A stretch of 61,532 bases of DNA, the filler included. It is 6 parts of 6 records of this genome, joined end to end, with 100 filler letters (N's around TTAATTAATTAA, not from the genome) between each part and the next. Parts side by side here need not be neighbours in the genome. Positions count along the whole stretch, not along the records: positions 28,426 to 38,763 come from SRR31147125_20264; 5 more parts are not named here. The stretch is one strand, 5' to 3'. A program made the position numbers and the translations under genes. The notes below the pieces were generated by a model. The model was not told the DNA's origin, did not search any database, and saw only the letters and a list, made by a program, of their open reading frames with translations. The stretch's first letter is position 1. Each line of letters starts with the position of its first letter. Shown in pieces: positions 18,760-48,055 of this stretch.

Positions 18760-18776
18760 GCATAAAAACATGTACC

Positions 18777-19560: not shown

Positions 19561-19571
19561 TAACATTAGAG

Positions 19572-19922
19572 ATGAACAGAAAAGAACTTGAAAAACTAAT
19601 TATTAATGATCAGATTGGCAACGCCGATCCGAAAATAAAAAGCCGACTTGATCATGCTTTCATGCTAAAATCTTCGAATTATTCGATCCGACAAAATTCA
19701 TTTTTCGGATTTTTCACTTGGGTATTCTCATTAAACGGGATTGGAATTAAAGCTGCAATTTCATGTTTATTTATTGTCTATTTCATGTTTAATCAGAACA
19801 TAAAAATTGAAACTGAAAATTCTATTAGCTTGGACACAACAACTGTCACCCAGATTATAAAAATTGATTCATCTCTTTTTCAACCAAATACGAATATTTT
19901 AAACGACAGTGTGATTCTCTAA
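19572..19922 (+). CDS. Putative single-TM anti-sigma factor
   Basis: Directly follows the ECF sigma; central hydrophobic helix. Confidence 0.55.
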   Translation: MNRKELEKLIINDQIGNADPKIKSRLDHAFMLKSSNYSIRQNSFFGFFTWVFSLNGIGIKAAISCLFIVYFMFNQNIKIETENSISLDTTTVTQIIKIDSSLFQPNTNILNDSVIL

Positions 19923-19925
19923 CCC

Positions 19926-22896: not shown

Positions 22897-22915
22897 GTAA
22901 CGATTATTTGTTCAA

Positions 22916-22947
22916 TAATACACTTCAACTTACAAAGGTTCAAAAAA
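22916..22947 (-). promoter_or_regulatory. Putative ECF sigma promoter GAACC-N15-GTATT for DUF2723
   Basis: Minus strand TTTTTTGAACCTTTgtaagttgaAGTGTATTA, ~20 nt before ATG 22896. Confidence 0.7.
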
Positions 22948-23185
22948 CTTTTTCTTTGTTAACAATAAAGAATACTTTATCAAGATTCATCATGTTTTTG
23001 AATACGAATAGTATTAATTCTTAAATATGAGTAATTGAGCATTAACAAAGCATCAATCATTTTTTAATTAAGACTTTTTAAATCGAATCTAATAAATTGC
23101 AAGCCGATCAAAATAGAAAAGGCAGACCAGAAAGAATGGAATCATTAACAGGGAAATACCCACCTTCTATTGAAGGATCCCCTGG

Positions 23186-23217
23186 AGAGGCTGGCTACAG
23201 TCAGCCTCTTTTATTTA
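23186..23217 (+). terminator. Rho-independent terminator oriented on the plus strand
   Basis: AGAGGCTGGCT-ac-AGTCAGCCTCT then TTTATTT. Confidence 0.7.
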
Positions 23218-23227
23218 AAAAATTGAT

Positions 23228-24193
23228 CTAATAGCAATATTCAGCCATCAAAAAAGATTGGACATAATCCTTAACTGAATCTTCAAGACTTGTAAATTCT
23301 TTTTTATAACCAGCTTCTCTTAGCTTTTGAATATCAGCACAAGTATAATATTGATAACCTTCTCGAATATCTAATGGTGTATCCAGAAAGCTTATATCCT
23401 CTTGTAGTTTCATTGAACTAAAAACAGCTCTCGTCAAATCCAGATAAGTACGTGCCTGCCCAGTTCCAACATTATAAATTCCTGAATGCTTTCGAATATT
23501 CATAAAGTGTAACATTACACTTGTAATATCTTCAACATAAATAAAATCACGAGATTGATGTCCATCTTTAAAATCAGGATTGTGTGAACGGAACAATTTC
23601 ATTTTACCCGTTTCTGAAATGCGGTTGAATGCCTGATAAACAACGGACGCCATTCTTCCTTTATGATATTCATTTGGACCAAATACATTAAAAAACTTTA
23701 AACCAGCCCAAAAATAAGGTTGTTTTTCCTGTTCCAATGCCCAACAATCAAAATCATGTTTCGATTGTGCGTAATGATTTAGTGGTTTTAAGTTTTGTAT
23801 TCCTTCATGTGCATCATTAAATCCAAGAGTTCCATCGCCATAAGTTGATGCTGAAGAAGCATAAATTAGTGGTAACCCATATTGAATGCAGCTTTTCCAG
23901 ATTTCTTTTGAATAATGAAAATTGAGTTGTTGATAAACTTCTGATTCTTGCCCGATAGTATCGGTTCGTGCACCTAAGTGAATAATAAATTGGACATGCT
24001 GATTATTCTCTTCGAGCCATTCAAAAAAATCATCTCTATCAACAATACTTGAGTAGTTCTTTGAAACATAGTTCGATATCTTCATCGGATCATCAAACTT
24101 ATCAACCAATACTACATCTTGGTAGCCTTCACGATTAAGACGACCAACCATATAGCTTCCAATAAAACCTGCTGCACCCGTAACAACAATCAT
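23228..24193 (-). CDS. rfaD: ADP-L-glycero-D-manno-heptose 6-epimerase
   Basis: MIVVTGAAGFIGS, HLGARTDT, YASSASTYG, PLNHYAQSK, FFNVFGPNEYHKGRMASV, YQYYTCAD. Confidence 0.93.
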   Translation of the reverse strand: MIVVTGAAGFIGSYMVGRLNREGYQDVVLVDKFDDPMKISNYVSKNYSSIVDRDDFFEWLEENNQHVQFIIHLGARTDTIGQESEVYQQLNFHYSKEIWKSCIQYGLPLIYASSASTYGDGTLGFNDAHEGIQNLKPLNHYAQSKHDFDCWALEQEKQPYFWAGLKFFNVFGPNEYHKGRMASVVYQAFNRISETGKMKLFRSHNPDFKDGHQSRDFIYVEDITSVMLHFMNIRKHSGIYNVGTGQARTYLDLTRAVFSSMKLQEDISFLDTPLDIREGYQYYTCADIQKLREAGYKKEFTSLEDSVKDYVQSFLMAEYCY

Positions 24194-24467
24194 AAAATCC
24201 TTTTTTCTATACCAAATTAAGTCAATTCTTAATTTAGAACTTTTACTCCTTCACTTTTATTGTATAATTGCACCTGTTTTTTTTAACGGTTATTAACAAT
24301 TATTAAAAGTGATAAATCCTTCTAATGGATACACAACCTCAACGGTTGCTTTTTCAAATGCAAAAATAAGATTGAAAAGCTTATTACAAACAAGTTCAGT
24401 CCATTATTTTTCAAAAAAGACTAACAATCAAACTCTAGTCTTTCTGGTGATTTTAGAGATTTAGTAA

Positions 24468-24475
24468 TACATTTG
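24468..24475 (+). promoter_or_regulatory. Bacteroidota housekeeping -7 promoter element TAnnTTTG
   Basis: TACATTTG 28 nt upstream of folE. Confidence 0.5.
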
Positions 24476-24502
24476 CCTAAGAAATAAGAAATTTATTAGA
24501 AT

Positions 24503-25126
24503 ATGGAGCATTCTTTTAACGGAAAGCAAAGTGGATATCAACGGATTGATAAGTTTGACAGTAAAAATACTGAAGATCTTAGTACACATTATAAAAAGAT
24601 ACTGGATTTATTGGGCGAGGATGCAAATCGGGAAGGACTAAAAGATACTCCGGTAAGAGTTGCAAAGGCCATGCAGTTTTTGCTTCAGGGGTATGATCAG
24701 GATCCGGAGGGGATGCTGCGTTCTGCTATGTTCAAAGAAGATTATCAGCAAATGGTGATTGTAAAAGACATTGAGATTTTTTCAATGTGTGAACACCACA
24801 TGTTACCATTTATTGGTAAGGCACATGTTGGCTATATCCCCAATGGTTATATTACAGGACTTAGTAAAATTGCCCGAGTTGTTGATGCCTTTTCCCGTCG
24901 TTTACAAGTTCAGGAACGATTAACCTTACAAATCAAGGAATGTATTCAACAAACATTAAACCCGCTTGGGGTTGCGGTAGTTATTGAAGCTCAACACTTA
25001 TGCATGCAAATGCGAGGTATTCAAAAACAGCATTCGATTACAACTACTTCCGATTTTACAGGTGCTTTTGAACGTGTTGCCACACGCGAAGAATTTATTC
25101 GTTTAATCAGTTCAAATCTTTCATGA
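24503..25126 (+). CDS. folE: GTP cyclohydrolase I
   Basis: [51 protein letters not shown]. Confidence 0.97.
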
Positions 25127-25288
25127 TTTTACATATTCGTAATATTCTTTAAATTTCATTTTTAATTTACGATTTGCCTCTATTTTTATATTATTTTAGC
25201 AGATAATCTACCAACCATACTAAATCAAAGACTAAATAGTAATTTGAAAAAATTAAAAATTGGACTCTATCAAACTAAATACAAGAAG

Positions 25289-26119
25289 ATGAAAACACCA
25301 AAAACACTTAAATTCATTTCGTTAGCTCTAGTTTCAGGACTTCTTTTTGCAGGTATGACTTCATGCATCAGTAAAAGTTCAAAAAAAGAAAGTCCAAAGG
25401 TTTCTGAAGAAACTATTCAAAAAGAAATTGAAGATTACAGCTATCCGCTTCCTTCTGCATTTGAAGTAACAAATATGCTTAATGAGATTGAAGCAAGCTT
25501 TATTGTTGGTATTGCTCAAAATCCAGAAAAAGCAGATTCATATTTTACTGAAAAAAGCAAAGCTTTAAATCTTGGAATATACACCGCAGATTTAGCCTAT
25601 GCAACTACTTACAATCAAAAAGCTGAGATTGAGAATTATCTTAAAGCTACAGAAAAGCTTGCAATGGAGTTGGATTTGAGAGCAGCTTTTAGTGATGATA
25701 TCCCTGGCGAACTTGAGGCAAATATGGATAACAAAGAAAAGTTAGTTGAGATTGTAACAGAAATGTTTCAAAGCGCTTATAGCTATCTAAATAAACAAGG
25801 CAGAACTGAAGTTTCATATCTTGTACTTGCAGGCACCGTATTTGAAGGGTTATACTTAACAACTCATATTTCTGAGAATACGTTCCAAAATCCGAAGATT
25901 ATTGAAACCATTCTTTTTCAAAAAGATCCTTTGTCTGAATTGGAAAAAATGATGACTCCATATAAAGACTCTGAATTACTAAAAGATACATACGAAAACT
26001 TAAAAGCTGTAAATTTAATTTATGCGCTGGAAGAAGGCACTACCTCTATGACTAAAGAACAAGTGCTAAAGCTTACTGAAACAATTACTTCAATTAGAGA
26101 AAAAAATATTCAGCAATAA
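25289..26119 (+). CDS. Uncharacterised helical lipoprotein
   Basis: Lipobox MTSC after a hydrophobic stretch; KALNLGIYTADLAY motif. Confidence 0.7.
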   Translation: MKTPKTLKFISLALVSGLLFAGMTSCISKSSKKESPKVSEETIQKEIEDYSYPLPSAFEVTNMLNEIEASFIVGIAQNPEKADSYFTEKSKALNLGIYTADLAYATTYNQKAEIENYLKATEKLAMELDLRAAFSDDIPGELEANMDNKEKLVEIVTEMFQSAYSYLNKQGRTEVSYLVLAGTVFEGLYLTTHISENTFQNPKIIETILFQKDPLSELEKMMTPYKDSELLKDTYENLKAVNLIYALEEGTTSMTKEQVLKLTETITSIREKNIQQ

Positions 26120-26134
26120 TCTAAATTCATTGTT

Positions 26135-26183
26135 GAAAACGGGCTTTTGCTTTTCTATTCATTGGGTGCAAAAGCCCGTTTTC
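26135..26183 (+). terminator. Long stem-loop, probable terminator
   Basis: GAAAACGGGCTTTTGC...GCAAAAGCCCGTTTTC, 16-bp perfect stem. Confidence 0.65.
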
Positions 26184-26196
26184 TAATTTTACAACT

Positions 26197-28325
26197 ATGC
26201 ACGAAGGTATCATTGAAAACCTCATCAAGCTTTTTGCCATCATAACCAATTATGATGATAAGAAAGATGCTGATCAAGCAAAAGCATTGGTGAATTCATA
26301 CCTTCAGGAAAATTTCAGCAGAGATCTGGTTGAAAAATACTTAGCACGATACTCCAGTTTTGTAAATTATTATCACAGCCAAAATAAAGAGATACTATAC
26401 GAAGGAAAAGGTACTGGTCGAAAAATTATAAATAAATCCTATCTCAATACGATTTGTTCTGAAATCGCAGATCAGTTCGGTTTGGATACCGTGTTTATGA
26501 TTGTGGTACAGCTGTTAAATTTCATTCAAAAAGAAAGTAGTACAGAACAAGCTGATATTGAAACTGTAGATACAGTTGCCGAAGGTCTTAAGATTAATCC
26601 CAAGGAATATGAAGATCTTTCTCTTTTCTATTTACAAACCATTCATAAAGTAAAAGACAAACGCAATTTATTTGTTGTAAATGGAAATGAAGAATATCCA
26701 TCAAAAGACATTAAACACCTTTACCGGGAAAACCAAACTGTTGAACTAGAGCTAATACGAATTAGTAGTATCAACACCCTTTTCCTAAAGTACCAGGGGC
26801 CACGAAACATGTACCTCAATGGTCACCGACTTTCACAAAAAGGCTATACGTTTTCCCTCAAGGTGGCATTTTGCGTACATCCCGTATTATTCCAATATAT
26901 TACAGTAGTATTATGTCCAGGTTTATTCAGCAACAGGGTAAACCAAAAATTGTATTTAATGCTGAAAATATTGAATACCGATTTGGTCGCAGACATTTTG
27001 GACTTCACCCACTAAGTTTTCAGGAACGATCTGGTGACTTAGTTGGTATTTTAGGTGGTAGCGGTGTAGGAAAAACAACCCTTTTAAATGTATTGAACGG
27101 AAAGTTAAAACCCAATACTGGTCGTATTATCATAAACGGATATGATCTTCATGATCCTGAGAACAAAGAAGTTCTTGATGGAACAATTGGTTACATCCCT
27201 CAAGATGATTTACTTCTCGAAGAACTTAGTGTTTACAAAAACCTGGAGTTTAATGCCAAACTATGCTTCGATGATATAAGTATTGAGAAGCTTCATGAAA
27301 TAGTTGAACATACATTATTGGATTTTGACTTGGTTGAAGCTCGTGATCTGGTTGTAGGAAATCCATTAAAAAAGATACTAAGCGGAGGACAGCGAAAGCG
27401 ACTTAACATTGCCCTTGAATTAATGCGTGAACCATCTATTCTTTTTGTAGATGAACCAACCTCTGGACTTTCCTCTTCTGATTCTGAAAAAGTCATGTAC
27501 CTTTTAAAAAGACAATGTTTAAAAGGGAAACTTGTTTTTGCAAACATCCATCAGCCTTCAAGTGATATATACAAACTCTTTGACCGAATGATTGTGATGG
27601 ACAAAGGGGGAAGAGTTGTCTTTTTTGGAAATCCGATGGAAGCCATCACCTACTTTAAAGAGCAGGCAAATTATATCAATCCTGACAAAAGCGAATGCCT
27701 GGCTTGTGGTAATGTTAAAGCAGAACAGCCCCTGCAAATTATTGAAACCAGAATGGTTGACCCATTTGGGAAAAGCATTCGTCAACGTAAAATTTCTCCG
27801 GAAGACTGGTATCAGCGATATAAAGAAAAGGTTGAGCCTCGAGTCGTAAATTTCATGAAGCTCAATCCAAATGAGAAAGAAGTTTTACCGGAGGCTCTTT
27901 TCAAAAGTCCAAAATGGTTTGAACAGCTAAAGCTTTTTATAAAAAGAGACTTTGCTACAAAAAAAGCAAACAGACAGTACTTGGCAATTGCATTGCTTCA
28001 AGCTCCATTTTTAGCAATCCTTCTTGGCTTCTTTTCAAAGTTTTCAAGCACTGAAAAATATTTGTTCAGATACAATGATAACATCCCAGCCTTCCTCTTT
28101 ATGAGTGTGGTTGTTGCTCTATTTATTGGCTTAACCATTAGTGCTGAAGAAATTTTCAAAGATCGAAAAATCCGAAAGCGTGAAGAATTTCTGAACCTGA
28201 GCAAAGGTGCTTACTTTGTATCTAAAATCCTTATCTTATTTTCAATATCGGCCGTTCAAGTTCTTTCATTTGTCCTTATTGGCAACTGGATGTTAGGAGT
28301 TGAGCAGATGACATTTTCAACCTGG
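26197..28325 (+). CDS. ABCG-type ABC transporter (N-terminal TerB-like extension + ATPase + permease); frameshift at ~26838, 3' truncated
   Basis: Adding one A gives SQKRLYVFPQGGILRTSR, joining the two ORFs; GGSGVGKTT, LSGGQRKR, LFVDEPTSGL, NIHQPS. Confidence 0.85.
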
Positions 28326-28425
28326 NNNNNNNNNNNNNNNNNNNNNNNNNNNNNNNNNNNNNNNNNNNNTTAATTAATTAANNNNNNNNNNNNNNNNNNN
28401 NNNNNNNNNNNNNNNNNNNNNNNNN
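28326..28425. other. Artificial contig-joining linker
   Basis: N run with TTAATTAATTAA. Confidence 0.98.
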
Positions 28426-28456
28426 TTTTTTTCTTTTCCATTTTTCATTATTCACC

Positions 28457-29011
28457 TCAATAAAATATTCCGACAACGACATAATCGATCTCATCGAACC
28501 GTACCTTTCCGTCACTTTCAGTACAATGATCGCCTTTTGTGATGCAATACCATCCGTCGGCATCTTCTTCTATTTTGATTATCCTGTGAAGGATGTTAGT
28601 TGGAGTATCATCCTTATTGAATGATACCATGTCACCGACCTGAAGATCTTTTTCCAGATGAACAGGACATTTGATGATACTATGATTCCCGTGTATCACC
28701 GGGCGCATGGAACCCGTTGCAGCAATTTTACCTTTTGTGCAATCTTCAGGGAGCTGCATGACAAAAAGGTTTGAATTGTAACTTTTGTTGTTAAGCAGGT
28801 AATCAATATCGCCTGTAATATTGCCTAAGCTCGTCGAAAGCAGTAGGGTACTATTTTCCACGCTTGCATCGTAATCGTCTGCTACAAACCATTTCTCGCT
28901 TAACCTGATGTCAGGAGCAACATCAATCGCATTAGCGTTGAACGTGATGATTGCTCCAAAGAATGCAAACAGTAAAAACATCATTACTAACCAAAATGTA
29001 AAAATATTCAT
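28457..29011 (-). CDS. S26-family signal peptidase (Sec11/SipW-like Ser-His type)
   Basis: N-terminal TM; TGSMRPVI; LQVGDMVSF; ILHRII; ITKGDH. Confidence 0.8.
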   Translation of the reverse strand: MNIFTFWLVMMFLLFAFFGAIITFNANAIDVAPDIRLSEKWFVADDYDASVENSTLLLSTSLGNITGDIDYLLNNKSYNSNLFVMQLPEDCTKGKIAATGSMRPVIHGNHSIIKCPVHLEKDLQVGDMVSFNKDDTPTNILHRIIKIEEDADGWYCITKGDHCTESDGKVRFDEIDYVVVGIFY

Positions 29012-29028
29012 TCAATTCAGCACCTCAT

Positions 29029-29992
29029 TCATATAAACCACGACTTGACAGTAACCCACCAGTCAGACCCATCACTTTCAGAGCCAGTGTCATTATCAGC
29101 AACAACTGATGCAGGAGCATCGTCAAGCAAGTCATCAAGCGCATCCTGCCACTTTTCAAGCTCTTCAGCCAATCTCAGCTCATCCGTGAGCGTGATATCA
29201 GTCCTCTTGAGCTCAGCTTCAACCTCAGCGATCTTGCTTTGGACATATGCAATCTCAGCCTCAAGTTGTTCCTGTTCCCTGAACTCGTCATATGTTCCGT
29301 CTTCAGCAACATAGATTGTCCGTGATTTTTCATCATAACTGAAATCGTTGTCAACCGTTAGAGCGTAATCGATCAGTGAAGTAGGATATACATATTCATC
29401 TCTTGTCCTTGGGAAAGGTCCTTTGTATTCACAGGGCATATACTTGACATATGAAGGGAATGCACTTCCCATGTATTCTTCAATCTTGTCGCCATCTGCT
29501 TCCCTGTCACCGTCAGGGCAATCCCTTAGCTTGTAAAGATGCTCGTCATCAACATCCGGGCTTCTTGAAGTCATCGAATATCTCACTGATAATGTATGGA
29601 TGCCTTCGCTGACACCTGAAATAGTGACGTTTCTTCTAAGCTCAGTTGCATCCTTTCCGGCATGGTTTGAATTGGTTGAGCAGAAAAACACGCTTTCCTG
29701 CACATCATCGTCAACTAAAAGTTCGATAAATCCGCACCACGTTCTCTGCCTGCCATGAAAATATGCCGAATATTCAACCTGAAATGGTGTTCCTTCTTCA
29801 ACGGCAGGGCTTAGTGTGTAGGGAGCATCGACCCCAACATAGTCACCTGAAAACCTGGTGATCGCTAATCCCTGGCTATCTCCTGTTTGATTTAAACCAA
29901 AAGACCATATCCCGGCTATCACCATGACAATGAAAATTGCACCTAATCCATATAAAAGGGAGTTCCCCTTTTTTATTTTTTGCGATTTTCAT
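29029..29992 (-). CDS. Secreted/membrane protein with class III-like signal peptide and C-terminal coiled coil; frameshift near ~29970
   Basis: Removing one A gives MKIAKNKKG|NSLLYGLGAIFIVMVIAG, continuous with ORF 29029-29925; ends in amphipathic WWVTVKSWFI. Confidence 0.6.
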
Positions 29993-29995
29993 CCT

Positions 29996-30327
29996 TTATC
30001 CACCCCTGACCATGCTCAGAGCTTGACCTGCTGTGATATCAAGACCGACCCATTCGCCTTTGAACAAAAGCACCAAAGCAAGGATAGCCATTACACCGAG
30101 CACGTATGGGTTCGTATATCCTCTGTAAAGCATCATCAGACCAATTACTATCACTGCTGCTCCGAGCAGCTTATCCATGAAAAAGATCGATGAAAACAGT
30201 ACTATCAAGACAAATATTGCAACACCGAGCCATACCCAAACATTGAGTAGTAATGGCAATAACAGCTGCACATAACCTTTCTTTGACTTCAGGATTCGTA
30301 AGTTTCGTATTTTTCTTTGAGATTCAT
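29996..30327 (-). CDS. Small multi-TM protein with class III-like N-terminus; frameshift near ~30312
   Basis: GGTGA SD + ATG 30327; adding one A gives MNLKEKIRNLRILKSKKG|YVQLLLPLLL. Confidence 0.55.
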
Positions 30328-30332
30328 TCTTA

Positions 30333-31298
30333 TCACCATGCTATCCACATTATCAGATTGATTATCAGACCGAGCAATGCGCCGACTATTGCGAATATCA
30401 ACCCTACAGAAAGACCGCCTAACCATATTGTGCCTGCAATGAGACCAATGATCGCTAATGCTCCGACCCAACCCCACTTGAATGAGTAACTGGTCTCAAG
30501 GTCAGTATCCGATGGTGACGTGACAGATCCGCCCGGAACGGTCACAGTTTCCTCTTCATCAGATTCGTCATCGTCAGCGGAATCTTCTTTATAATCCTCG
30601 GTTGAACAGGTTTTTACTAATATAGGCATGCCTTCAGTGCTTCCGGTGGCTCGTGCATCGTAGCAGATCCTTGTCTGGTAAAGTTTACCTTTAGAGTCAG
30701 CCGTGCATTCGCCCCAATCATGACAGATCCAGTCGGGTTCGATATCAAGAGGATCAATGCAATAACCGTTGTCGCAGTATTCGCCGTCGTCGCACTCTAT
30801 GGCGTAACCATAGAACTTGTTACTGATGCAGCTCTGCTTTGATGTCATTGTTTTGCAAGCGTAACCTACAGCGTTTGACGTGCATTCCTTCTCTGCCTGG
30901 CAGGTGTAACATTCCCAGCCCCACATGCCTGCTTCAGTCGTCTTGAACGTTGCCGGGCTTTCGAATTCGCCGCCCTTACCAAAGTCCCAGTTGCCTTTAT
31001 CATTGACATAATACAGGTTGATGAGCGCAGGCTCGTCCTCGCACTGCATCTGGATAGTGAAGCCTTTGGTCGGCAGGTTGATCGTATGCGATTCAACAGG
31101 CAGTTCCGTGCATTGTCTTTGTTCCCCTGCAATCGTCAGGGATTTTACTGATTCGCTGAACCAGAAACTGTCTTCCAGGTTATCCACCACATAACCGTGA
31201 GGGAACGCTGTCACAGAGCCGCCTAAGACAGCGATCAGGGATAGTATCAGTAGGATTTTCAGTGTAATTGTTGTATTTTTGTTTTCCACATAGATCAC
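30333..31298 (-). CDS. Cys-rich surface protein with signal peptide and two C-terminal TM helices (spike-like topology)
   Basis: CDDGEYCDNGYC, PDWICHDWGEC...QTRICYD (TSP1-like), acidic linker, C-terminal Gly-rich TMs. Confidence 0.65.
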   Translation of the reverse strand: MIYVENKNTTITLKILLILSLIAVLGGSVTAFPHGYVVDNLEDSFWFSESVKSLTIAGEQRQCTELPVESHTINLPTKGFTIQMQCEDEPALINLYYVNDKGNWDFGKGGEFESPATFKTTEAGMWGWECYTCQAEKECTSNAVGYACKTMTSKQSCISNKFYGYAIECDDGEYCDNGYCIDPLDIEPDWICHDWGECTADSKGKLYQTRICYDARATGSTEGMPILVKTCSTEDYKEDSADDDESDEEETVTVPGGSVTSPSDTDLETSYSFKWGWVGALAIIGLIAGTIWLGGLSVGLIFAIVGALLGLIINLIMWIAW

Positions 31299-31299
31299 C

Positions 31300-31857
31300 T
31301 CATGATTCTGTATATTTACCGTTCCTGAACTTCAGGAGCTTTTCGTAAGTGTGTTCGTCGCCGTCTTCAAATACAGTCGCACGCAGCTTTGCATCGAAAT
31401 CGTCGATTATGTCATCGCAGTTGTTGTCAAGGATAGTGAAGTCAAGCACATATTCCGGTCTCTGGATCGTGCTGCCGCCGGGATGAGTATCATCGCCGCT
31501 GTCGGATGCAATGACGTTGTTTGTCCTAGTATTGATAAGCTCAACTTTCCATTCATAATCTTGTTTGGTGATGCCAAGTGACGGAGTATATTGCCGGACT
31601 TCGGAAACATCGATCTCGACCGGTTCAGGTTCTACGCCCCAGAACGCTGTATCTTCAATATATATCTCGCCGCCGATCCTGACGCCCATGTAAGTTGCTT
31701 TGCATGAGTCTGTTGATGGGGTCAGGCTGTCAAGACCTGTCATTGCACCTGCGTTCTGTGCGTACAGTATGATCGCTACGATCACGAGCGCTATCGCCGC
31801 TACTATGCCGATGGTTTTCGGGTCCAATTGACCTTTTTTCATTTCGATAAGTTTCAT
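31300..31857 (-). CDS. Protein with class III (prepilin-like) signal peptide
   Basis: MKLIEMKKG|QLDPKTIGIVAAIALVIVAII; beta-rich C-terminal domain. Confidence 0.65.
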   Translation of the reverse strand: MKLIEMKKGQLDPKTIGIVAAIALVIVAIILYAQNAGAMTGLDSLTPSTDSCKATYMGVRIGGEIYIEDTAFWGVEPEPVEIDVSEVRQYTPSLGITKQDYEWKVELINTRTNNVIASDSGDDTHPGGSTIQRPEYVLDFTILDNNCDDIIDDFDAKLRATVFEDGDEHTYEKLLKFRNGKYTES

Positions 31858-31873
31858 TTGATTAACACCTCAA

Positions 31874-32122
31874 TTAAAAGATTTTGCCGATTATGAGACC
31901 TGCGCCGTAAGGTACAGTGATTGCGTACACCCACGGATATGATTGGATGAGATTACTGAAAGCAGGATAACCGAGTGATTCGAGCATCCCTGCAAGCATG
32001 ATGAGAATCATGAGCACAGTTATCCCTAAAAGGACGTAACCGAACACAGGCGGAAGCTTGCCGCTGGTGTACCCCAGCAGTCCAAAAACGACTACCATGA
32101 TGATTATCAGTCCTATGTCCAT
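31874..32122 (-). CDS. Small 3-TM membrane protein
   Basis: GAGGTGA SD; almost entirely hydrophobic, 82 aa. Confidence 0.7.
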   Translation of the reverse strand: MDIGLIIIMVVVFGLLGYTSGKLPPVFGYVLLGITVLMILIMLAGMLESLGYPAFSNLIQSYPWVYAITVPYGAGLIIGKIF

Positions 32123-32442
32123 ATGGATGTCACCTCACACTCAAGCATCCTGACCTGGCATCTGTGGTTCACGCACTTACTCTGGAATGATCGGGTTATC
32201 CCTTTATCAAGAGCGTAATCTTCGCAATCTTCATAATCGTCGCATTCAGGTTTTCCCGGCATGTCCTGCCACGCAATCTCAGGACAGGTATCTTCCTTTT
32301 CGTTTTCATTAATCTCAATGTCTTTAGGGTCAAGCTTTTTGCAGGCCTTGAAGGCAACTATTACGAACATGGCAAGTATCATTATTCCTATCAATGTCAT
32401 GATTGGCAGCATGCCCCTTTTATCCGGTTTGATATGTCTCAT
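32113..32442 (-). CDS. Cys-rich protein with class III signal peptide
   Basis: ATGA overlap with upstream stop; MRHIKPDKRG|MLPIMTLIGIMILAMFVIV; ECDDYEDC...CVNHRC. Confidence 0.65.
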   Translation of the reverse strand: MRHIKPDKRGMLPIMTLIGIMILAMFVIVAFKACKKLDPKDIEINENEKEDTCPEIAWQDMPGKPECDDYEDCEDYALDKGITRSFQSKCVNHRCQVRMLECEVTSIWT

Positions 32443-33146
32443 GATACTATGCTCAACCCCTGTGCTGATGCGTCTATTATTGCGTTCCAGCCGTAGTGTG
32501 AATTGTTGCCTGGGTCTTCGCCGAGCTTGAGCACGTAAAGTATTAGCCATACCATCATGACTATACCTGCAAAGATCATTGCGCTCAGTGCAAGACCATA
32601 CGCTACGACATGGAAAATTGGGAAACCGACGATAATCATGGCGAATGCTATAATGTCTGAACCCAGATATTGCCTGATAATCTCAAACAGAGTGAAAAAG
32701 GTCTTGTTCTCTACGAAGCCGAGAACGCCTGTGAGTAACGGCGCAAACGTGCTTCCGAGGTCAGACGCTACTGATAAGCTTGGAACGCCGAGGATGGAAA
32801 AGTTCTGATTGCTTTGCATCCCTATCATCAATACGAAAACAATGCCTGAGATGATCCATGTAAATATTACATATCCTATTCCCTTGAACTCGTTCCCGTT
32901 CTCGACTTCATCTGAATCGAACTTGTTTAAGTTTGAGGTTTTGATCTGAAGACTGCCAAGTCTCATTATCATGTAAAATAAAAGCCCAAACATGTAAAAA
33001 GTCGATACCCATGACTTGTCAAGGTTGGCGTATGCAAACCAGAATGTGCAGAATATGATAATGTCTGCAAACTCCGGGGCGATCAGATTATCGACCAGGC
33101 TAAGCATTATAAGGTATGCAAATGCGATTATCAGTTCAGTCAGCAT
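32439..33146 (-). CDS. CPBP (CAAX/Abi)-like intramembrane protease, divergent
   Basis: Multi-TM; GFVENKTFF (degenerate EExxxR), FPIFH (FxxxH), SHYGWN (HxxxN). Confidence 0.6.
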   Translation of the reverse strand: MLTELIIAFAYLIMLSLVDNLIAPEFADIIIFCTFWFAYANLDKSWVSTFYMFGLLFYMIMRLGSLQIKTSNLNKFDSDEVENGNEFKGIGYVIFTWIISGIVFVLMIGMQSNQNFSILGVPSLSVASDLGSTFAPLLTGVLGFVENKTFFTLFEIIRQYLGSDIIAFAMIIVGFPIFHVVAYGLALSAMIFAGIVMMVWLILYVLKLGEDPGNNSHYGWNAIIDASAQGLSIVS

Positions 33147-33250
33147 GTCCGGGGAGCACCTCTGGTTATTATTGGATTATTGATTAAGCATGAATGTGGA
33201 TGAAAAGAGGAATGTGAAAATAACGGGAAAGTGTTATCTGTGCGGCTCTC

Positions 33251-33275
33251 GAAAAAGAGAGAAAAAAGAAAAAAG
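33251..33275 (-). terminator. Archaeal oligo-T terminator
   Basis: Consecutive T runs on the minus strand just after the 33289 stop. Confidence 0.5.
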
Positions 33276-33288
33276 TTATTGTTCAGAC

Positions 33289-34338
33289 TTACACAGTCAT
33301 GACAATCTTTGGGTTTGCAGCTCCAACATCAGTTGAACTGGTGTCATCTTTTGCGATACCTTCGTCGACTGTCTTTACGTCAACACTCAAAAACTTAGCA
33401 CCATCATAGATATACCAGTTGATGTTCTGACCTGTCTGTCCCTGTTTCAATTGCACGCATGCAGTTGCAACAGTCACAAGACCTTTCTCGCCAGATAAGC
33501 TGTGTCCGCCAGGAAGAAGACCGTTCAAGTCAAGCTCATAGCCTTTTTTCATGCCGTCATCGATCATCTTGTTGAACATGTTGTCAAGTTCTGATCCGCC
33601 GTCTAAGCTGATCGAATACTTGGTGATCGGTGCGTCATGAGCAAGATATATTCCTGTTGAACCATAGTTCTTGATAGCGGAATTGATCTGCATCTTGATA
33701 TCATAGCACTTGGTTGTACCTGCTGTGATTGAGACGCTTGTCATGGTGATTGTGTTGGTTGTGGTGTTGTAGTTGTTGCTCTCGAAAGAGTTAGCTGTCT
33801 GGTCGAAGATCTCAACATTGATCTCTGTGTCAGCTGGATATTTCACAACACCTGCGACAACAGGTTTAGGGTTTGAGTTTGCATCGACTTCATCCTCAAC
33901 GCCATAGAATCCTGTTCCATAGACGAAATATGGAATCTCTTTACCGAATGGTACGCTCACGCTTGTTGCAGCTGTGCTGACAACGCTGTTAGATTCTTGC
34001 TCACCTGCGATGAATGATACAACTGTACCGTTCAGGTAAGATACGCCAGAAGTGATGTTAAGCTCATCTCTGATCCTGAATTTCAGTGTAGCTGTTGCGT
34101 CTGCATCAACAGATTTCAGGATGACTTCCTTTTCCCCATCCTCAGAGGCTTCCTCTGCAGTATCCAAGAACTTCCCGGAGATGTCCAATGTCTTACCGTC
34201 AAGGTCAACATTAGTGTCATCTTTCATTATGGCAATGCCTATGAGTGTCCCTACTACAATCATCGCCATAACGATGATTATAGTCAATTGGGCAAACCCC
34301 TTTTTGTTTTTTTGTATTCTATTTTTTTTATATTTCAT
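33289..34338 (-). CDS. Putative major structural protein with class III signal peptide
   Basis: GAGGTGA SD; MKYKKNRIQKNKKG|FAQLTIIIVMAMIVVG; S/T/V-rich beta domains with several NxS/T sequons; own TATA promoter and terminator. Confidence 0.6.
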   Translation of the reverse strand: MKYKKNRIQKNKKGFAQLTIIIVMAMIVVGTLIGIAIMKDDTNVDLDGKTLDISGKFLDTAEEASEDGEKEVILKSVDADATATLKFRIRDELNITSGVSYLNGTVVSFIAGEQESNSVVSTAATSVSVPFGKEIPYFVYGTGFYGVEDEVDANSNPKPVVAGVVKYPADTEINVEIFDQTANSFESNNYNTTTNTITMTSVSITAGTTKCYDIKMQINSAIKNYGSTGIYLAHDAPITKYSISLDGGSELDNMFNKMIDDGMKKGYELDLNGLLPGGHSLSGEKGLVTVATACVQLKQGQTGQNINWYIYDGAKFLSVDVKTVDEGIAKDDTSSTDVGAANPKIVMTV

Positions 34339-34403
34339 TGAGTTTATTCACCTCAAAAATTTTTAAATTAAAATGATTGTTGCTGATAGAAATGAGATTG
34401 AGG

Positions 34404-34412
34404 TTTATATAT
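34404..34412 (-). promoter_or_regulatory. Archaeal TATA box
   Basis: Minus strand ATATATAAA ~65 nt upstream of ATG 34338. Confidence 0.55.
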
Positions 34413-34417
34413 TGGTT

Positions 34418-34480
34418 GGTACAGATTCTGAATATACTATGGTACAGATTCTGAATAAACTATGGTACAGATTTTGAATA
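34418..34480. repeat. Three direct repeats GGTACAGATTYTGAATA with 23-bp period
   Basis: Copies start at 34418, 34441 and 34464. Confidence 0.92.
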
Positions 34481-35057
34481 AGGTTGCAGAGATTATCCCG
34501 ACATATCGTCGTGAAATTAATTTTGGTATTGCACTGATCGTACGGTACTGGGACTCATTATATATACTTCTCTCTTCATACAATCAATATCACCCTATAA
34601 ATTCAATACTATACAATCCATACAATCAAATCCATCCATACGAACAATAACAACAGGCTGAAAGCCTTGATAATAGCGGCGCAAACGGCGCAAATTACCC
34701 CCGGAGCGGAGCGGAGGGGATATCAATCCCCGTATCCGGCAACGGATACCAATATGAGACCGATGTCCTTGCTAAAGGGCTAAGGGCGATAATAGCACTG
34801 CAATCCAATGCACAATATCATACCGCACTATAACGCACTGCCACTGCATCACCACTATCACTTAAACTTCCACAATCACTACCACTAAGACCGAAAGGCC
34901 ACATCAAAACCTATCATCGGGGCAAAGAATCAGCACGATTATACAGGCTCCCGATAGTCAACATTCAATAATCCAAAAATTTAAAAAGAAAAATAATAAA
35001 GCTTTTTATGGTCATAAACCTTTTGTTGTTTCAAACAACATAAGCTACTGGTGGGGG

Positions 35058-35309
35058 TCATACCTCGCCGTAGATTCTTACCATCTCACTTACCTCATTC
35101 TGCTCGGCAAGAGCACTTAACTCGTTTCGCATCACGCTAATCGCTTCCTGACTGAAACAGTCATACAAGATGCCATAATGCGCAAGAACACTGGGGAATT
35201 CATTTCCCTCAATATCATCGACATCCCAGTTGAACCCGTCGTCAATGAAACTGACATGCTTAATATACTCAATCGTCTTATGCACTCGCATCGCCTCAAT
35301 CGGGTTCAT
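35058..35309 (-). CDS. Hypothetical protein
   Basis: 83-aa ORF coupled (ATGA) to the upstream gene, GGAGGTG SD. Confidence 0.6.
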   Translation of the reverse strand: MNPIEAMRVHKTIEYIKHVSFIDDGFNWDVDDIEGNEFPSVLAHYGILYDCFSQEAISVMRNELSALAEQNEVSEMVRIYGEV

Positions 35310-35626
35310 GCTTCCACCTCCTTTCTTTCAACAACAGAAGAGGGAGTGGTCCCTCTCTCGTCATCGATGTTCAATTCGGCAAGAGCTATCGCCAAATCCC
35401 TCAACTGATGAGGGTCGCACCATATAGTCTGTCTTTTCCAGTCATTTCCTACCTTTCTACTTAACTGGATGCTTGCTCTTGTCACATCGATGCTCCTCTC
35501 AGGAACATATCCTACCTCATGACTCTTCGGAGCGAATGTCTTTGTTCGCTTCCATACACACACCTGGAATCCTCCGTGCTTTGACTTCATCATTGGTCCT
35601 TTCTTTTCTTCTAATACCATTTTCAT
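35306..35626 (-). CDS. PC4/Whirly-like putative ssDNA-binding protein
   Basis: GGFQVCVW...SIQLSRKVGNDWKRQTIWCDPHQLRDLAIAL, resembling the small G-I-x-x-x-W / SYK-D-G-W / DL family. Confidence 0.5.
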   Translation of the reverse strand: MKMVLEEKKGPMMKSKHGGFQVCVWKRTKTFAPKSHEVGYVPERSIDVTRASIQLSRKVGNDWKRQTIWCDPHQLRDLAIALAELNIDDERGTTPSSVVERKEVEA

Positions 35627-36104
35627 GTTTTTCCTCGTTTAGTTTTTATCGATTATCCAATAATTTGATTGGACATCTGACTTACAATCAAATTTATTCA
35701 TCGAGAGAGTTCATCGGCAGAGAAGGAAGAGTCAGGCGTACTTAGATGGGTTTCATCGGGTACGACATCGCCAGGTGGGGCTTCGAGGCATTAATATGCC
35801 GAGGCAGAATCGCGCTACTGCACGAAGACCAAAGGCTTTAAGTTGGGCGGTCGTACAAGGTAGACCGTCTCTTAATGTTTTTGAGTGACCGAAGGGAACG
35901 TGTCACACTGTAATCAGCTTGGTTCTTAGAATCAGTTTATTCGCCATTGTTACATAGCGGGTACATAGGCTGTCGAGGATAGGCTTGAGTTTATCCGCAA
36001 AAATAGGCGCTGGTGTTACGGTGGTAATAAATTCCTGATCTTTCCTCTATATCCATCAACAATCATAATGGTATTTTATCCGTAAAATCATACATCATTG
36101 TTTA

Positions 36105-36988
36105 TCACCCGGTTATATTCTCCTGATCCTTTTTGCAGTCCTTTCTTATCATTTGGAATAGGATGTCATCTTTTGTTGTATATTGACCATAATGTAGTGA
36201 ACTCTCGTAATAATCAATGAGTTCATCGCAGGAAAGGTCAGCGATTGTTTTCTCCCGGCAGACATCTTTATATGTCATTGTGCAGTTCAGCCATCCGGGT
36301 TCCGAATCCATAAAATCAACAAGACATTCTGGTGTTCCGGAATAGGGTTCCTCGAAGTTGCAATCCATCCATTCACAAGTATCAATCCATTCTATATGAG
36401 GCTCTTTACAGTAATAGATATGGAAAAATTCATCCAATTCCTCATAATATATTCCTTTTTCACTATAATTAGCTGTGACCCAACCATCTCCTAAATATTT
36501 ACCGCTGCATTGGTAACTGTTTGGGATCTTTTCAGTTATATACATGGGATCGCCATCATCACATGGGGTTTTCTCTCTGGCAGATAGGCAGTAACGGAAG
36601 TTGTACGAACACACCTTATCTTCTGTAATATTGCACCATTTCCCTTCAGGGCAATTAATATTATAAACACACACAGGGTCATCGTTAGAACATTCAAAAG
36701 TGATATAATCATCATTGCTCCATTCAGTGCATACGCATTCGCTGTCGCAATATGCAGTCCAGCCATCAAGGCATTTATCGCAGAAGGTCTTGTCACGCCA
36801 GTCCATACAATAGGACGGTTCAGTGTCAGACGATAAAAGGCAAATGTGCTTATCTGGGTTGAATGAAGGCTCGCCTCCAATAAATCCGAATATGAAGACA
36901 ACTAACATTAACAGAGCAATTGCTATGATAATCTTTGCAAAACGTGACTTTGCCCGCTCTTGATTCTTTTCATTTCCTTTGTTTTCAT
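36105..36988 (-). CDS. Cys-rich secreted protein; probable frameshift near ~36941
   Basis: Adding one T gives MKTKEMKRIKSG|QSHVFAKIIIAIALLMLVV; repeated C..W/aR.KT.C motif. Confidence 0.55.
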
Positions 36989-37001
36989 TTGCGATTGTTG
37001 A

Positions 37002-37331
37002 TCACCTGTATTGAGTTATGTAATTTAAACATAAATGATTCGGAATGTTGATCTTGTCGCAGGAAGGTCGTTTCTGACAGCGATAACATGGATTAATTAT
37101 CTTGAGTGGCTTATCATCTATATCAGTGCTTAAATTCCTTTGCGCTCGTCTTTTCTTGAAATTCTCGAAGTTATATCTTCTATCAGGAACAACAGCTGAC
37201 GGTCTATCCCTTGAACAGCCAGGCTTATGATCCTTCGTTTCAATTATCCCTCTTTTATTCCTGTAGGTAATGACCCTGCATTCAGGGCATTTCCATTCAG
37301 TATTTATCACCACTTTTTCATTCAGCCTCAC
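37002..37331 (-). CDS. Zn-ribbon/Cys-rich hypothetical protein
   Basis: WKCPEC...HKPGC and PCYRC...C...C. Confidence 0.6.
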   Translation of the reverse strand: MRLNEKVVINTEWKCPECRVITYRNKRGIIETKDHKPGCSRDRPSAVVPDRRYNFENFKKRRAQRNLSTDIDDKPLKIINPCYRCQKRPSCDKINIPNHLCLNYITQYR

Positions 37332-37480
37332 TTATGCATGCGCTGTTTGCAATCATCGCAATACAGTCTTAGCAGATGCTTACACTCGAACATCCTGCCG
37401 CAGCGTTTGCACTTTCGCTTTTCCTTGAAGTGACGTCCGTTGATCTTTTCGAGGTTTTTCAGTCCATAAATGTCTCTCAT
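37328..37480 (-). CDS. 50-aa C4 zinc-finger protein (not in ORF track)
   Basis: MRDIYGLKNLEKINGRHFKEKRKCKRCGRMFECKHLLRLYCDDCKQRMHK*; GTGA overlap with the next gene. Confidence 0.6.
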   Translation of the reverse strand: MRDIYGLKNLEKINGRHFKEKRKCKRCGRMFECKHLLRLYCDDCKQRMHK

Positions 37481-37525
37481 TCTTCTTCATCTCTGATAAT
37501 TTTTAGTTCCTTCCCTCTATCTCCT

Positions 37526-38077
37526 CTATTTCTTCAGTTGCTTTCGGATATCTTGGATTGCATCATTCAATTCCTGCATCGCTTTATCATCACCGCCTTT
37601 GTCGGCATGTAGTTCCTTTGCACGCTGCCTGTATTTGAATTCAATATATTCAAGGTCCTTGCTGGTCTCATCTACGCCGATGATCTGTCGCGGCGTCTTG
37701 ATCTTTTCACCGTCAGGGTCATAGCCGATCCGGAACTGGTTCATGACCTGGCCGAATGTCTTGATGCCACGCTCGATGAATATGACCTCGTAATGCACGA
37801 GCTGCTCGATTGCAGCAACGCAGCCGGTCGCATTCTCCTGACTGTCGCATCTGTAATAATGTTCCTTTCCGTTGACCATCCACTTGATCTCTGCAAATGG
37901 TTCCTCGTAACCGTAATGGCTGTTCTCAATACTGATGTGATCCTTCTCGATACCGATCCTTGAAAGCCATCTGATGATATCAGTTCTGTATCGCTGGATG
38001 TTCTTTGAAGCGCTGACCTTGTTGATGTTTATTTCAATTTCCTTTCCGTTCACTTGGATTTTTTGGTTCATTTTCAT
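37526..38077 (-). CDS. Virus-type protein with C-terminal DnaJ J-domain (HAD in place of HPD)
   Basis: PRQIIGV...IEFKYRQRAKELHADKGGDDKAMQELNDA. Confidence 0.8.
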   Translation of the reverse strand: MKMNQKIQVNGKEIEININKVSASKNIQRYRTDIIRWLSRIGIEKDHISIENSHYGYEEPFAEIKWMVNGKEHYYRCDSQENATGCVAAIEQLVHYEVIFIERGIKTFGQVMNQFRIGYDPDGEKIKTPRQIIGVDETSKDLEYIEFKYRQRAKELHADKGGDDKAMQELNDAIQDIRKQLKK

Positions 38078-38264
38078 ATTCTCTGAAGTTCATGTTCTGG
38101 CAACAATCCTTGCATAACAGCAGCTTCTTATCATCATCAGCTGATACAAAACTCTCAAAATCATTCATATTGAAATTATAATCATTTAAAGTGAATGTCT
38201 GAGCGACCTTATCTCCAACACCAAGTTTTATTCCACAGCAATCGCATTTCTTATCATTTCCCAT
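38034..38264 (-). CDS. Small Zn-finger protein
   Basis: KCDCCG...LLCKDCC. Confidence 0.55.
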   Translation of the reverse strand: MGNDKKCDCCGIKLGVGDKVAQTFTLNDYNFNMNDFESFVSADDDKKLLLCKDCCQNMNFREYENEPKNPSERKGN

Positions 38265-38513
38265 CTATTCGACCTCATATACCTTGACTCTTTCATCCGC
38301 TCCAGCAGCTGCTTTTGAAATTAAACCCATTATCCAATCTACACTAAGCTTTGGATCATCATCCGTAGAAACGCAATCTTTGACTTCATCTATGATTTCT
38401 TTTTTAATGACAACGACTTTATAAAGCGTACCTTCTCTTGAAATTTGTTTGCTGAAAAAATCGCCTTTCTCTATTGGTATATCTTTCTCGTTATTGACTT
38501 TAATTGGTTCCAT
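38265..38513 (-). CDS. Hypothetical protein flanked by 17-bp direct repeats
   Basis: 82-aa ORF; TATGAGGTCGAATAGAT at both ends. Confidence 0.55.
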   Translation of the reverse strand: MEPIKVNNEKDIPIEKGDFFSKQISREGTLYKVVVIKKEIIDEVKDCVSTDDDPKLSVDWIMGLISKAAAGADERVKVYEVE

Positions 38514-38763
38514 TATCTATTCGACCTCATAAATTAAATGTCATACCCCTTATCCCTGCAATCAGTTAAATTATGGTATAACAAGCACTGATTCATAGCT
38601 GCTGTTGATATCAATATACTCCATTGCACACCGCCACTGGATTGCCTCACGCATACTGTCAGCATCGAATATTGCGTTGTCTTCGGGGTTTAGCATATAA
38701 TCCATTTTTTGCATGCAATATGCAGAAGGATAATCTACTAAGAACTCCGTCCATAAGTTACTA

Positions 38764-38863
38764 NNNNNNNNNNNNNNNNNNNNNNNNNNNNNNNNNNNNN
38801 NNNNNNNTTAATTAATTAANNNNNNNNNNNNNNNNNNNNNNNNNNNNNNNNNNNNNNNNNNNN
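38764..38863. other. Artificial contig-joining linker
   Basis: N run with TTAATTAATTAA. Confidence 0.98.
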
Positions 38864-47955: not shown

Positions 47956-48055
47956 NNNNNNNNNNNNNNNNNNNNNNNNNNNNNNNNNNNNNNNNNNNNT
48001 TAATTAATTAANNNNNNNNNNNNNNNNNNNNNNNNNNNNNNNNNNNNNNNNNNNN
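47956..48055. other. Artificial contig-joining linker
   Basis: N run with TTAATTAATTAA. Confidence 0.98.

Follow-up and report, generated by a model that had tools for sequence, protein, structure and literature searches.

Gene layout of the locus

The stretch described here, positions 28426-38763 of a window of 61,532 nucleotides (the whole DNA that was analysed, 1-61532, six contigs joined together), is one entire contig of 10,338 bp with a guanine-plus-cytosine (GC) content of 42.7%, set between N44-TTAATTAATTAA-N44 linkers on either side. It carries 18 complete open reading frames (ORFs; g1-g18 in gene orientation) and one that is cut by the contig end (g19), and it is considered here as part of a candidate archaeal virus-like element with surface proteins and a signal peptidase of its own. 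All 19 ORFs lie on the minus strand, very much as in the first-pass annotation of this DNA, which had counted about 17 co-oriented genes. The features on which most of the argument turns are the following.

28457..29011, minus strand: g18, 184 amino acids, Sec11/archaeal-type (S26B) signal peptidase I with an N-terminal transmembrane segment
30333..31298, minus strand: g15, about 318-321 amino acids, type-I membrane protein with signal peptide, Cys-rich ectodomain, acidic stalk and C-terminal transmembrane anchor
33251..33274, minus strand: hairpin-less 24-nt T-rich tract TTTTTTCTTTTTTCTCTCTTTTTC, 14 nt past the g10 stop, candidate archaeal-type terminator
33289..34338, minus strand: g10, 349 amino acids, putative major surface protein, first gene after the control region
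34339..35057, no strand: non-coding control region of 719 bp between the two gene blocks, no Rfam match, fold z -1.1
34417..34485: three tandem 23-bp repeats (100/96/78% identity), candidate regulator-binding sites or iterons
37526..38077, minus strand: g4, 183 amino acids, J-domain protein with a conserved N-domain (RGIKTFGQVMNQF motif) and a C-terminal J domain

The control region divides two blocks of different make-up. Transmembrane segments were predicted in none of the nine proteins of block 1 (g1-g9) as against eight of the nine in block 2 (g10-g18), and the ectodomains of block 2 are strongly acidic. The control region itself opens behind g9 with a tract rich in T and closes with the three tandem 23-bp repeats, after which comes a ATATATAAA box about 75 nt before g10; within it are perfect hairpins, all of them short, and GATTGTATG repeats. 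A promoter-led second block holding only membrane or secreted proteins had been described before; the gap and the box are there, and so are the membrane proteins, as eight of nine. Upstream of the 23-bp repeats, two short hairpins with perfect stems lie next to each other (GGTATCCG..CGGATACG and GGGGAT..ATCCCC, within 34600-34780, minus strand), with three GATTGTATG repeats beside them, and these hairpins and repeats could be features of an origin or an operator.

Of the 19 genes, 11 have a (G)AGGT(G) motif at a distance of 5-12 nt ahead of the start, in line with the archaeal Shine-Dalgarno (SD) motifs of the (GA)GGTGA type noted at first pass. Tracts of T without a hairpin are found downstream of g9 and of g10 (no stem-loop was called at 33251..33274 on the minus strand). 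There are 13 terminator-like sites, four of them on the coding strand and none at gene ends, and sigma-70-like sites are not enriched (24 found against 24.9 +/- 5.0 expected). At 32439-32442 the stop of g11 and the probable start of g12 overlap as ATGA, which suggests translational coupling within block 2. No tRNA or rRNA genes were found in the stretch, for which Rfam gave no match at the gathering threshold and, in the non-coding regions 35627-36104 and 34339-35057, none even at E <= 1.

The proteins are largely without recognised families. None of the 18 reached the Pfam gathering score, a PHROG scan of 17 gave one solid match (g4, to phrog_9210) and one weak one (g9, E 0.009), and in an NCBIfam scan of ten the match of g18 was the sole meaningful one. 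Neither did any of ten proteins match in PADLOC, nor did any of ten have an exact copy in a collection of 15 billion proteins. The statement that no cellular housekeeping gene is present agrees with the Pfam result and is qualified by g18, since signal peptidase I is an enzyme of the housekeeping type.

Signal peptidase, surface proteins and J-domain protein

By its motifs, g18 is a signal peptidase of the S26B (Ser/His) type with an N-terminal anchor. The catalytic boxes come in the right order, namely the Ser box GSMRP, the His box LHRI, with a His and not the bacterial Lys, and the Asp box KGD, and the protein has an N-terminal extension of ~90 residues. Among solved structures human SEC11A and SEC11C are nearest to it, residues 96-166 of g18 aligning with 52-122 of SEC11A. 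Among the NCBIfam models the archaeal-type TIGR02228 scored best (E 1e-10), followed by SipW (28.5 bits, E 1e-6) and the bacterial type (17.4 bits); Pfam S24/S26 gave no match. Two proteases had been announced for the second block, of which g18 stands. The other, g11, has no match to the CPBP/Abi family (PF02517), whose motifs we take to be EExxxR, FxxxH and HxxxN; the strings FPIFH and HYGWN are present in it and the EExxxR motif is degenerate.

The surface protein g15 has the layout of a peptidase substrate most clearly. Its signal peptide ends in SVTA/FPHG (the slash marks the predicted cleavage), and the one close homologue found among 5.8 billion proteins (P0002, 64% identity) has SALA/FPHG at the equal position and keeps all 14 Cys. 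The Cys of the ectodomain include WICHDWGEC...QTRIC, which occurs once in the stretch and is the Cys-rich WxCxxWxxC...QTRxC motif reported at first pass. From these sequences we infer that g18 processes g15 and other exported proteins of block 2.

The first gene after the control region, g10, is probably highly expressed. Like g15 it has a single close homologue in the 5.8 billion clustered proteins (P0001, at 69% identity), and an exhaustive HMMER search of 1.84 billion representatives brought its family to 11 proteins at E <= 1e-3 (312-377 amino acids). For both P0001 and P0002 the longest contig listed is one of 33,151 bp. Ten proteins were looked up (nine of the 11 plus P0002): none has a name, and they come from ENA or Logan metagenome assemblies, on contigs of at most 33 kb. 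An AlphaFold model of g10 was built on a 12-sequence alignment (predicted local distance difference test, pLDDT, 74, with a core of about 85-90) and shows an N-terminal transmembrane helix (5-38), a disordered acidic linker of ~40 residues (39-79) and two independent beta-sandwich domains. The first of these (80-168) is transthyretin/CnaB-like (Z 10.4, root mean square deviation, rmsd, 1.8 A, 79 residues aligned) and the second (169-349) is cohesin-like (Z about 7.5). Taken whole, the model matches surface proteins of several domains, for example SlaB, the stalk of the Sulfolobus S-layer (Z 9.9), and pilins of Gram-positive bacteria, and the best viral match is the BFVD entry A0A5Q2WAX2 (E 1e-11, TM 0.52/0.58). 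No capsid fold (HK97, double or single jelly-roll) was among the matches, an absence that does not amount to exclusion. Look-alikes in the ESM Atlas were Bacillota cohesins with low scores (0.84-0.85). As modelled, g10 is a membrane-anchored double beta-sandwich protein and does not have the type IV pilin fold.

The gene that connects the stretch to a known virus is g4. It matches phrog_9210, of function unknown, with E 4.6e-11 and has 30 full-length homologues at 40-70% identity, all 30 of which carry a precomputed PF00226 assignment. In an AlphaFold2 model (pLDDT 85.5) residues 127-183 form the four-helix J-domain fold (Z 7-8.8; rmsd 1.5-1.7 A to solved J domains over 56-57 residues), so that the J-domain gene of the first-pass annotation is well borne out in the model, and the N-domain is alpha/beta with weak look-alikes only (Z 6-6.8). 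The contigs of the homologues include some of 36-76 kb, besides the longest, described below. Among phage and archaeal-virus records tblastn of g4 retrieved only the Caulobacter phage Sansa (E 2e-3). A scan of IMG/VR with the alignment of the g4 family recovered one locus, L001 (IMGVR_UViG_3300035698_006020, 10,131 bp, 27% complete by CheckV, which puts the genome at ~37 kb), whose J-protein is 40% identical to g4 over the full length and also matches phrog_9210. It belongs to a head-tailed virus, as it encodes a large terminase subunit (TerL; phrog_2, E 1.3e-13), a portal-MuF fusion (PF04860, 100.6 bits; PF04233) and an S78 protease. The gene order is J-protein, two N6/N4 methylases (one a ParB-N fusion), a helix-turn-helix protein, TerL, portal-MuF and S78 protease, with the J-protein gene 3.4 kb upstream of TerL. 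The portal is nearest to those of Halorubrum tailed virus 28 (35,270 bp, E 2e-19) and HSTV-1 (32,189 bp, E 4e-9), as compared with about 1e-6 for bacterial phages; TerL gave no tblastn match. Since L001 has no SD motifs and a GC content of 36.6%, its host is probably different from that of the element in the stretch.

The remaining genes and the second non-coding region are these.

28426..28448, minus strand: g19, first 7 codons (MKNGKEK...), cut by the contig end, GAGGTGA SD
29029..29925, minus strand: g17, 298 amino acids, 61 D/E versus 25 K/R, C-terminal coiled-coil-like segment, no transmembrane segment
29996..30271, minus strand: g16, 91 amino acids, hydrophobic, helical
31300..31857, minus strand: g14, 185 amino acids, KKG/Q N-terminus, one transmembrane segment, acidic ectodomain
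31874..32122, minus strand: g13, 82 amino acids, almost all hydrophobic helices
32113..32442, minus strand: g12, probably 109 amino acids (ATG at 32442), KRG motif, one transmembrane segment, Cys-rich ectodomain
32439..33146, minus strand: g11, 235 amino acids, several transmembrane segments, no Pfam, PHROG or NCBIfam family
35058..35309, minus strand: g9, 83 amino acids, acidic, GGAGGTG SD, followed by a T-rich tract
35306..35626, minus strand: g8, 106 amino acids, no family
35627..36104, no strand: non-coding, 478 bp, no Rfam match, unremarkable fold (z -1.8)
36105..36908, minus strand: g7, 267 amino acids, acidic, 23 Cys, short hydrophobic N-terminus, probably secreted
37002..37331, minus strand: g6, 109 amino acids, basic, two CxxC pairs
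37328..37480, minus strand: g5, 50 amino acids, basic zinc-ribbon protein (CxxC...CxxC), weak Pfam DZR_2/C1 matches
38034..38264, minus strand: g3, 76 amino acids, zinc-ribbon-like (CxCC...CxxCC), 6 Cys
38265..38513, minus strand: g2, 82 amino acids, cytoplasmic, GAGGT SD, no family
38571..38714, minus strand: g1, 47 amino acids, acidic, uncertain gene, no SD

Three small CxxC proteins of block 1 (g3, g5 and g6) correspond to the small zinc-finger genes described there before. A "PC4-like" gene (PF02229) had also been named, for which no support was found: g8 matches no Pfam, PHROG or NCBIfam family and its best PDB sequence matches are unrelated repeat proteins at E >= 0.07.

The molecule and the search for relatives

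The six contigs of the window are separated by N runs at 17462-17561, 28326-28425, 38764-38863, 47956-48055 and 54267-54366. As they are separate contigs joined by linkers, the neighbours of the stretch in the window say nothing about its physical neighbourhood. Their GC contents (41.5, 33.9, 42.7, 40.4, 28.7 and 27.5%, in order) indicate a heterogeneous bin. The proteins of the stretch are set apart from those of all five other contigs in composition, with a DE/KR ratio of 1.77 (0.93-1.54 in the others), a median isoelectric point of 4.4 (4.9-6.9) and 2.8% Cys (0.5-1.1%). A halophilic origin of the acidic proteins was considered and dropped, the strong acidity being confined to ectodomains.

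Ten large ORFs, drawn from four of the five remaining contigs, were scanned for families. Two of them are Bacteroidota hallmarks, a SusC-type TonB receptor at 3571-6735 (CarboxypepD_reg and Plug) and an Lcl_C/Ig protein with a Por_Secre_tail of the type IX secretion system at 43350-45446. On the last contig (27.5% GC) a 663-amino-acid AAA_21/AAA_15 ATPase (AbiEii/OLD-like, ABC-type; 59284-61275, minus strand) could be a defence-type gene.

The stretch comes from the interior of a longer DNA molecule, of 35 kb or more, and makes up 29% of it. In a public run, a 35,187-bp Logan contig encloses the full 10,338 bp at its positions 18,744-29,082, with 0 substitutions and three 1-nt indels (window positions 29969, 30309 and 33261), all in intergenic homopolymer-rich runs where they touch no ORF. 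In gene orientation the molecule goes on for 18.7 kb or more ahead of g1 and for 6.1 kb or more past g19. The contig had already been taken as partial, and its extension together with a test for circularity had been proposed; a longer contig was located, and no joints suggesting circularity were seen within the stretch in the comparison with the contigs of the run.

Beyond the clustered proteins, relatives of g10 and g15 are conspicuously rare. No relative of either protein or of their families appeared in JGI metagenomes or in GTDB species genomes (one genome for each of 185,579 species). These scans, like that of IMG/VR, depend on few peptide patterns, the g10 motif fitting 5 of 12 family members. 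The WICxDWGxC motif gave four matches in IMG/VR, all chance and in frames with stops, and g15 had no look-alike in the ESM Atlas. Among 72,556 plasmids there was no match for g10 or g4, and g18 had one weak match, in a Clostridia record.

Nature of the element

We infer, with evenly balanced confidence, that the stretch derives from an archaeal virus not yet cultured, or from a mobile element resembling one, whether free or integrated. The viral or mobile nature is suggested by several features taken together. Nineteen co-oriented genes without a recognised family would be typical of archaeal viruses and mobile elements and not of a core chromosome, the only family link is viral (g4, through phrog_9210 and L001), and the families of g10 and g15 are extremely rare. 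The 35,187-bp contig, the 33,151-bp contig of the relative and L001 at ~37 kb also share a size class of 33-37 kb, within the 32-37 kb range of small archaeal viruses. In seeing here a virus or mobile element and not core chromosome, the first-pass annotation agrees with what was found. The archaeal host is suggested by the GAGGTG SD motifs, the T-tracts without hairpins, the lack of an excess of sigma-70-like sites and the Sec11/archaeal type of the peptidase. The Sec11-type boxes of g18 together with the conserved canonical cleavage site and the 14 Cys of g15 argue in the same direction, and so does the protein composition, unlike that of all five other contigs of the window.

A number of observations weigh against it. 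The virus link consists of one gene, and that gene, g4, is the only one that L001 and the stretch have in common, with no synteny between them. The family of g4 is found also on a contig of 1,056,171 bp and in NCBI records labelled "[archaeon]", and it may be cellular or proviral. The match of g4 to Pfam DnaJ (E 0.0015, 19 bits) is under the cut-off of 27.8, and its J-domain tripeptide is HAD (residue 158) where all 23 aligned homologues have HPD; the alignment comprised 23 of the 30 homologues, P0023, P0025, P0027, P0031, P0032, P0039 and P0045 being omitted. From the sequence, g4 may have lost the stimulation of Hsp70, or HAD may alternatively be a variant of the assembly or of the strain. 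As for g18, signal peptidase I normally belongs to the housekeeping enzymes of a cell, and the TIGR02228 match of g18 (E 1.1e-10, 41.6 bits) is under the cut-off of 51.85. IMG/VR, the search of which had been proposed at first pass and succeeded for the g4 family, yielded nothing related to g10, g15 or their families, and tblastn of g10, g18, g17, g15 and g7 against 50,697 phage and archaeal-virus records gave none. The 10.3 kb, which are 29% of the molecule, hold no hallmark gene of a virus, a plasmid or a conjugative element: there is no portal gene and, as had been noted before, no capsid (HK97 included), terminase, Rep, integrase or packaging ATPase gene, nor one for any other ATPase. Finally, the run with the 35,187-bp contig, in which 99% of the sampled sequence words were present, is probably the source sample itself, so that it is not independent of the window.

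The alternative that best withstands the evidence, though we regard it as unlikely, is a surface island in the chromosome of an archaeon with a small genome, whether DPANN-like or not, with fast-evolving envelope or attachment proteins, its own signal peptidase I and a cellular J-protein. The housekeeping character of the peptidase fits this well, as do the modelled fold of g10, which resembles the beta-sandwich arrays of S-layer stalks and pilin-type proteins such as SlaB, and the places where the g4 family occurs, among them the 1,056,171-bp contig, others of 49.8-75.8 kb and the "[archaeon]" protein of NCBI. It fits less well with the absence of a recognised family in all 18 proteins and of tRNA or rRNA from the stretch, and with the known context of the g4 family, which is viral. 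Neither the g10-family motif nor an alignment scan gave any match in the GTDB species genomes, and g10 and g15 have one close homologue each where g4 has 30, which also counts against it.

A little less probable still, in our view, is that the stretch is an accessory arm of a head-tailed archaeal virus (Caudoviricetes) of ~35 kb, with the capsid and tail genes in the upstream 18.7 kb and with block 2 devoted to envelope remodelling, exclusion or egress. The sole relative of g4 with a known context lies 3.4 kb upstream of TerL in an archaeal-type head-tailed virus, the nearest reference viruses (32-35 kb) match the molecule of at least 35.2 kb, and 18.7 kb would suffice for a head-tail module. 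Although L001 is of a similar genome size class, it has terminase, portal and protease where the stretch has zinc-ribbon and membrane proteins, and its host, as said, is probably another. It would furthermore be unusual for a tailed virus to encode membrane proteins one after another over six kb, together with a dedicated peptidase.

The proposal of the first-pass annotation was a morphogenesis module of an enveloped or pleomorphic virus or a vesicle-forming plasmid of DPANN archaea, the particle being built from prepilin-type (class III signal peptide) proteins. In that specific form we consider it improbable. In its favour are the eight membrane or secreted proteins out of nine in block 2, the "spike-like" g15 with its signal peptide and C-terminal anchor and the [KR][KR]G N-termini of g10, g12 and g14, which confirm the KKG-type N-termini reported earlier. 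The pilin part is what finds no support: g10, g12 and g14 gave no pilin hidden Markov model match in Pfam or NCBIfam at E <= 0.1, the fold of g10 is another one, and there is no A24 prepilin peptidase on the contig, the peptidase present being of type I. Within the g10 family [KR]xG precedes the hydrophobic segment in only 7 of 12 members, and an AxA-like type-I site follows it in at least 6 of 12 (by a rough rule). The bin-mates are Bacteroidota-like.

The comparison with known membrane-bound archaeal viruses gives a similar mixture. With the Pleolipoviridae (VP3 membrane and VP4 spike proteins) the stretch has in common a membrane-protein module with a spike-like protein, g15; it differs in that there was no PHROG or tblastn match, no VP8-type NTPase is present in the 10.3 kb, and pleolipovirus genomes, at 7-17 kb, are smaller than the molecule, which has at least 35 kb. 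With His1 (Halspiviridae, NC_007914) it has in common blocks of small CxxC proteins and a layout in which small proteins with two or three transmembrane segments stand with signal-plus-anchor proteins, as in the structural block of that virus. His1 VP27 is also among the weak structural matches of g10 (E 6e-4, TM 0.16-0.23). Against this, none of the 31 His1 proteins compared had significant sequence similarity, the His1 genome is less than half as long as the molecule, and the 10.3 kb contain no AAA+ ATPase or protein-primed polymerase. Spindle-shaped archaeal viruses are recognised by a small hydrophobic alpha-helical major capsid protein (MCP) and an AAA+ ATPase, according to a recent preprint (10.1101/2025.02.15.638363). 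In size and hydrophobicity g13 (82 amino acids) and g16 (91 amino acids) are like such an MCP, but they showed no significant similarity to His1 ORF21 and no PHROG match. An enveloped virus or vesicle plasmid, for which no capsid, packaging or replication gene was found in the 29% of the molecule at hand, is consequently one possibility among several, and the earlier interpretation is partly supported, the observation behind it being largely real.

A bacterial source we consider very improbable, such as a phage or island of Bacillota in which the signal peptidase would be of the SipW type and the surface proteins would be sortase-pilin-like. GAGGTG SD motifs are also present in Bacillota, g18 does match SipW and has its weak plasmid match in Clostridia, and the folds and look-alikes of g10 include Gram-positive pilins and Bacillota cohesins. 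As in SipW-TasA operons, a dedicated peptidase of the ER/archaeal type, with the Ser, His and Asp boxes kept, adjoins likely beta-sandwich substrates, although the candidate substrates here are not of the TasA/camelysin family (no Pfam match). The archaeal-type model nevertheless outscores SipW (41.6 versus 28.5 bits), the best solved relatives are SEC11A and SEC11C, and g10 has no LPXTG-like C-terminus. There is likewise no sigma-70-like promoter excess and no hairpin terminator at coding-strand gene ends, the g4 family is labelled "[archaeon]" and occurs in an archaeal-type tailed virus, and Cys-rich ectodomains are atypical for Bacillota.

Least probable of all, with hardly any weight in our judgement, is a conjugative module of the Ced/Ted type (related to type IV secretion systems) on an archaeal plasmid or integrative element, in which g13 and g16 would play the part of VirB2-like pilins and g11 that of a VirB6-like channel: the small hydrophobic helical proteins (82-91 amino acids), the multi-spanning g11 and the role of signal peptidase I, which matures TedC and cuts the VirB2-like pilin in systems without recognisable similarity to one another according to PMC9905601, are in its favour, but the 10.3 kb hold no VirB4- or TraG-like ATPase and the 72,556 plasmids had nothing for g10 and g4 and one weak match for g18.

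The reading that we find most likely is a new, sequence-isolated archaeal virus-like element with a distinctive surface-protein module and its own Sec11-type signal peptidase. It would work in two units. Unit 1 (g1-g9) would provide small cytoplasmic proteins, including the three zinc-ribbon proteins and the J-domain co-chaperone-like protein, that may act early on host nucleic acids and on the Hsp70 system. It would be separated by the 719-bp control region, with its three 23-bp repeats and TATA-like box, from unit 2 (g10-g19), a putative self-contained secretory and surface module made of the beta-sandwich protein g10, the disulfide-rich g15, the hydrophobic g13 and g16, the N-anchored ectoproteins g12 and g14 and the peptidase g18. 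In such a module g18 would cleave the Sec-type signal peptides of the element's own surface proteins, most clearly that of g15 at VTA/F. The outcome would be either membrane-associated particle proteins, such as archaeal viruses of the spindle-shaped and pleomorphic kinds have, or a remodelling of the envelope of the host. More tentatively, the element may represent an undescribed family of archaeal viruses of ~35 kb, with a particle or envelope made of a g10-type protein, a disulfide-rich spike and small hydrophobic proteins, which would encode a Sec11-type signal peptidase of its own; this fuller version we regard as possible but doubtful.

Outside Wu et al. 2024 and supplementary files, a full-text literature search brought up no account of an archaeal-virus signal peptidase I, of this J-protein family or of a gene set of this kind in archaeal viruses. 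Term searches found neither a signal peptidase nor DnaJ in a preprint on the Nanohaloarchaeota virome (10.1101/2025.02.15.638363), in a paper on viruses of Candidate Phyla Radiation and DPANN organisms in acid mine drainage (PMC12647753) or in an archaeal virus database paper (PMC13465236). The present value of the locus is that of a well-defined lead and not of a discovery. If the element is indeed a virus or mobile element, it would represent a lineage absent from IMG/VR and from the phage and archaeal-virus reference records searched. The J-protein family that it has in common with a head-tailed archaeal-type virus suggests that archaeal viruses recruit the Hsp70 system of the host. If the reading is true, g18 would be the first archaeal-type signal peptidase I encoded by a virus, here in company with a viral J-domain co-chaperone, and an element that brings its own secretory-pathway protease together with the substrates would offer a compact enzyme-substrate system for the study of archaeal protein export and, possibly, a new design of virion or of envelope remodelling.

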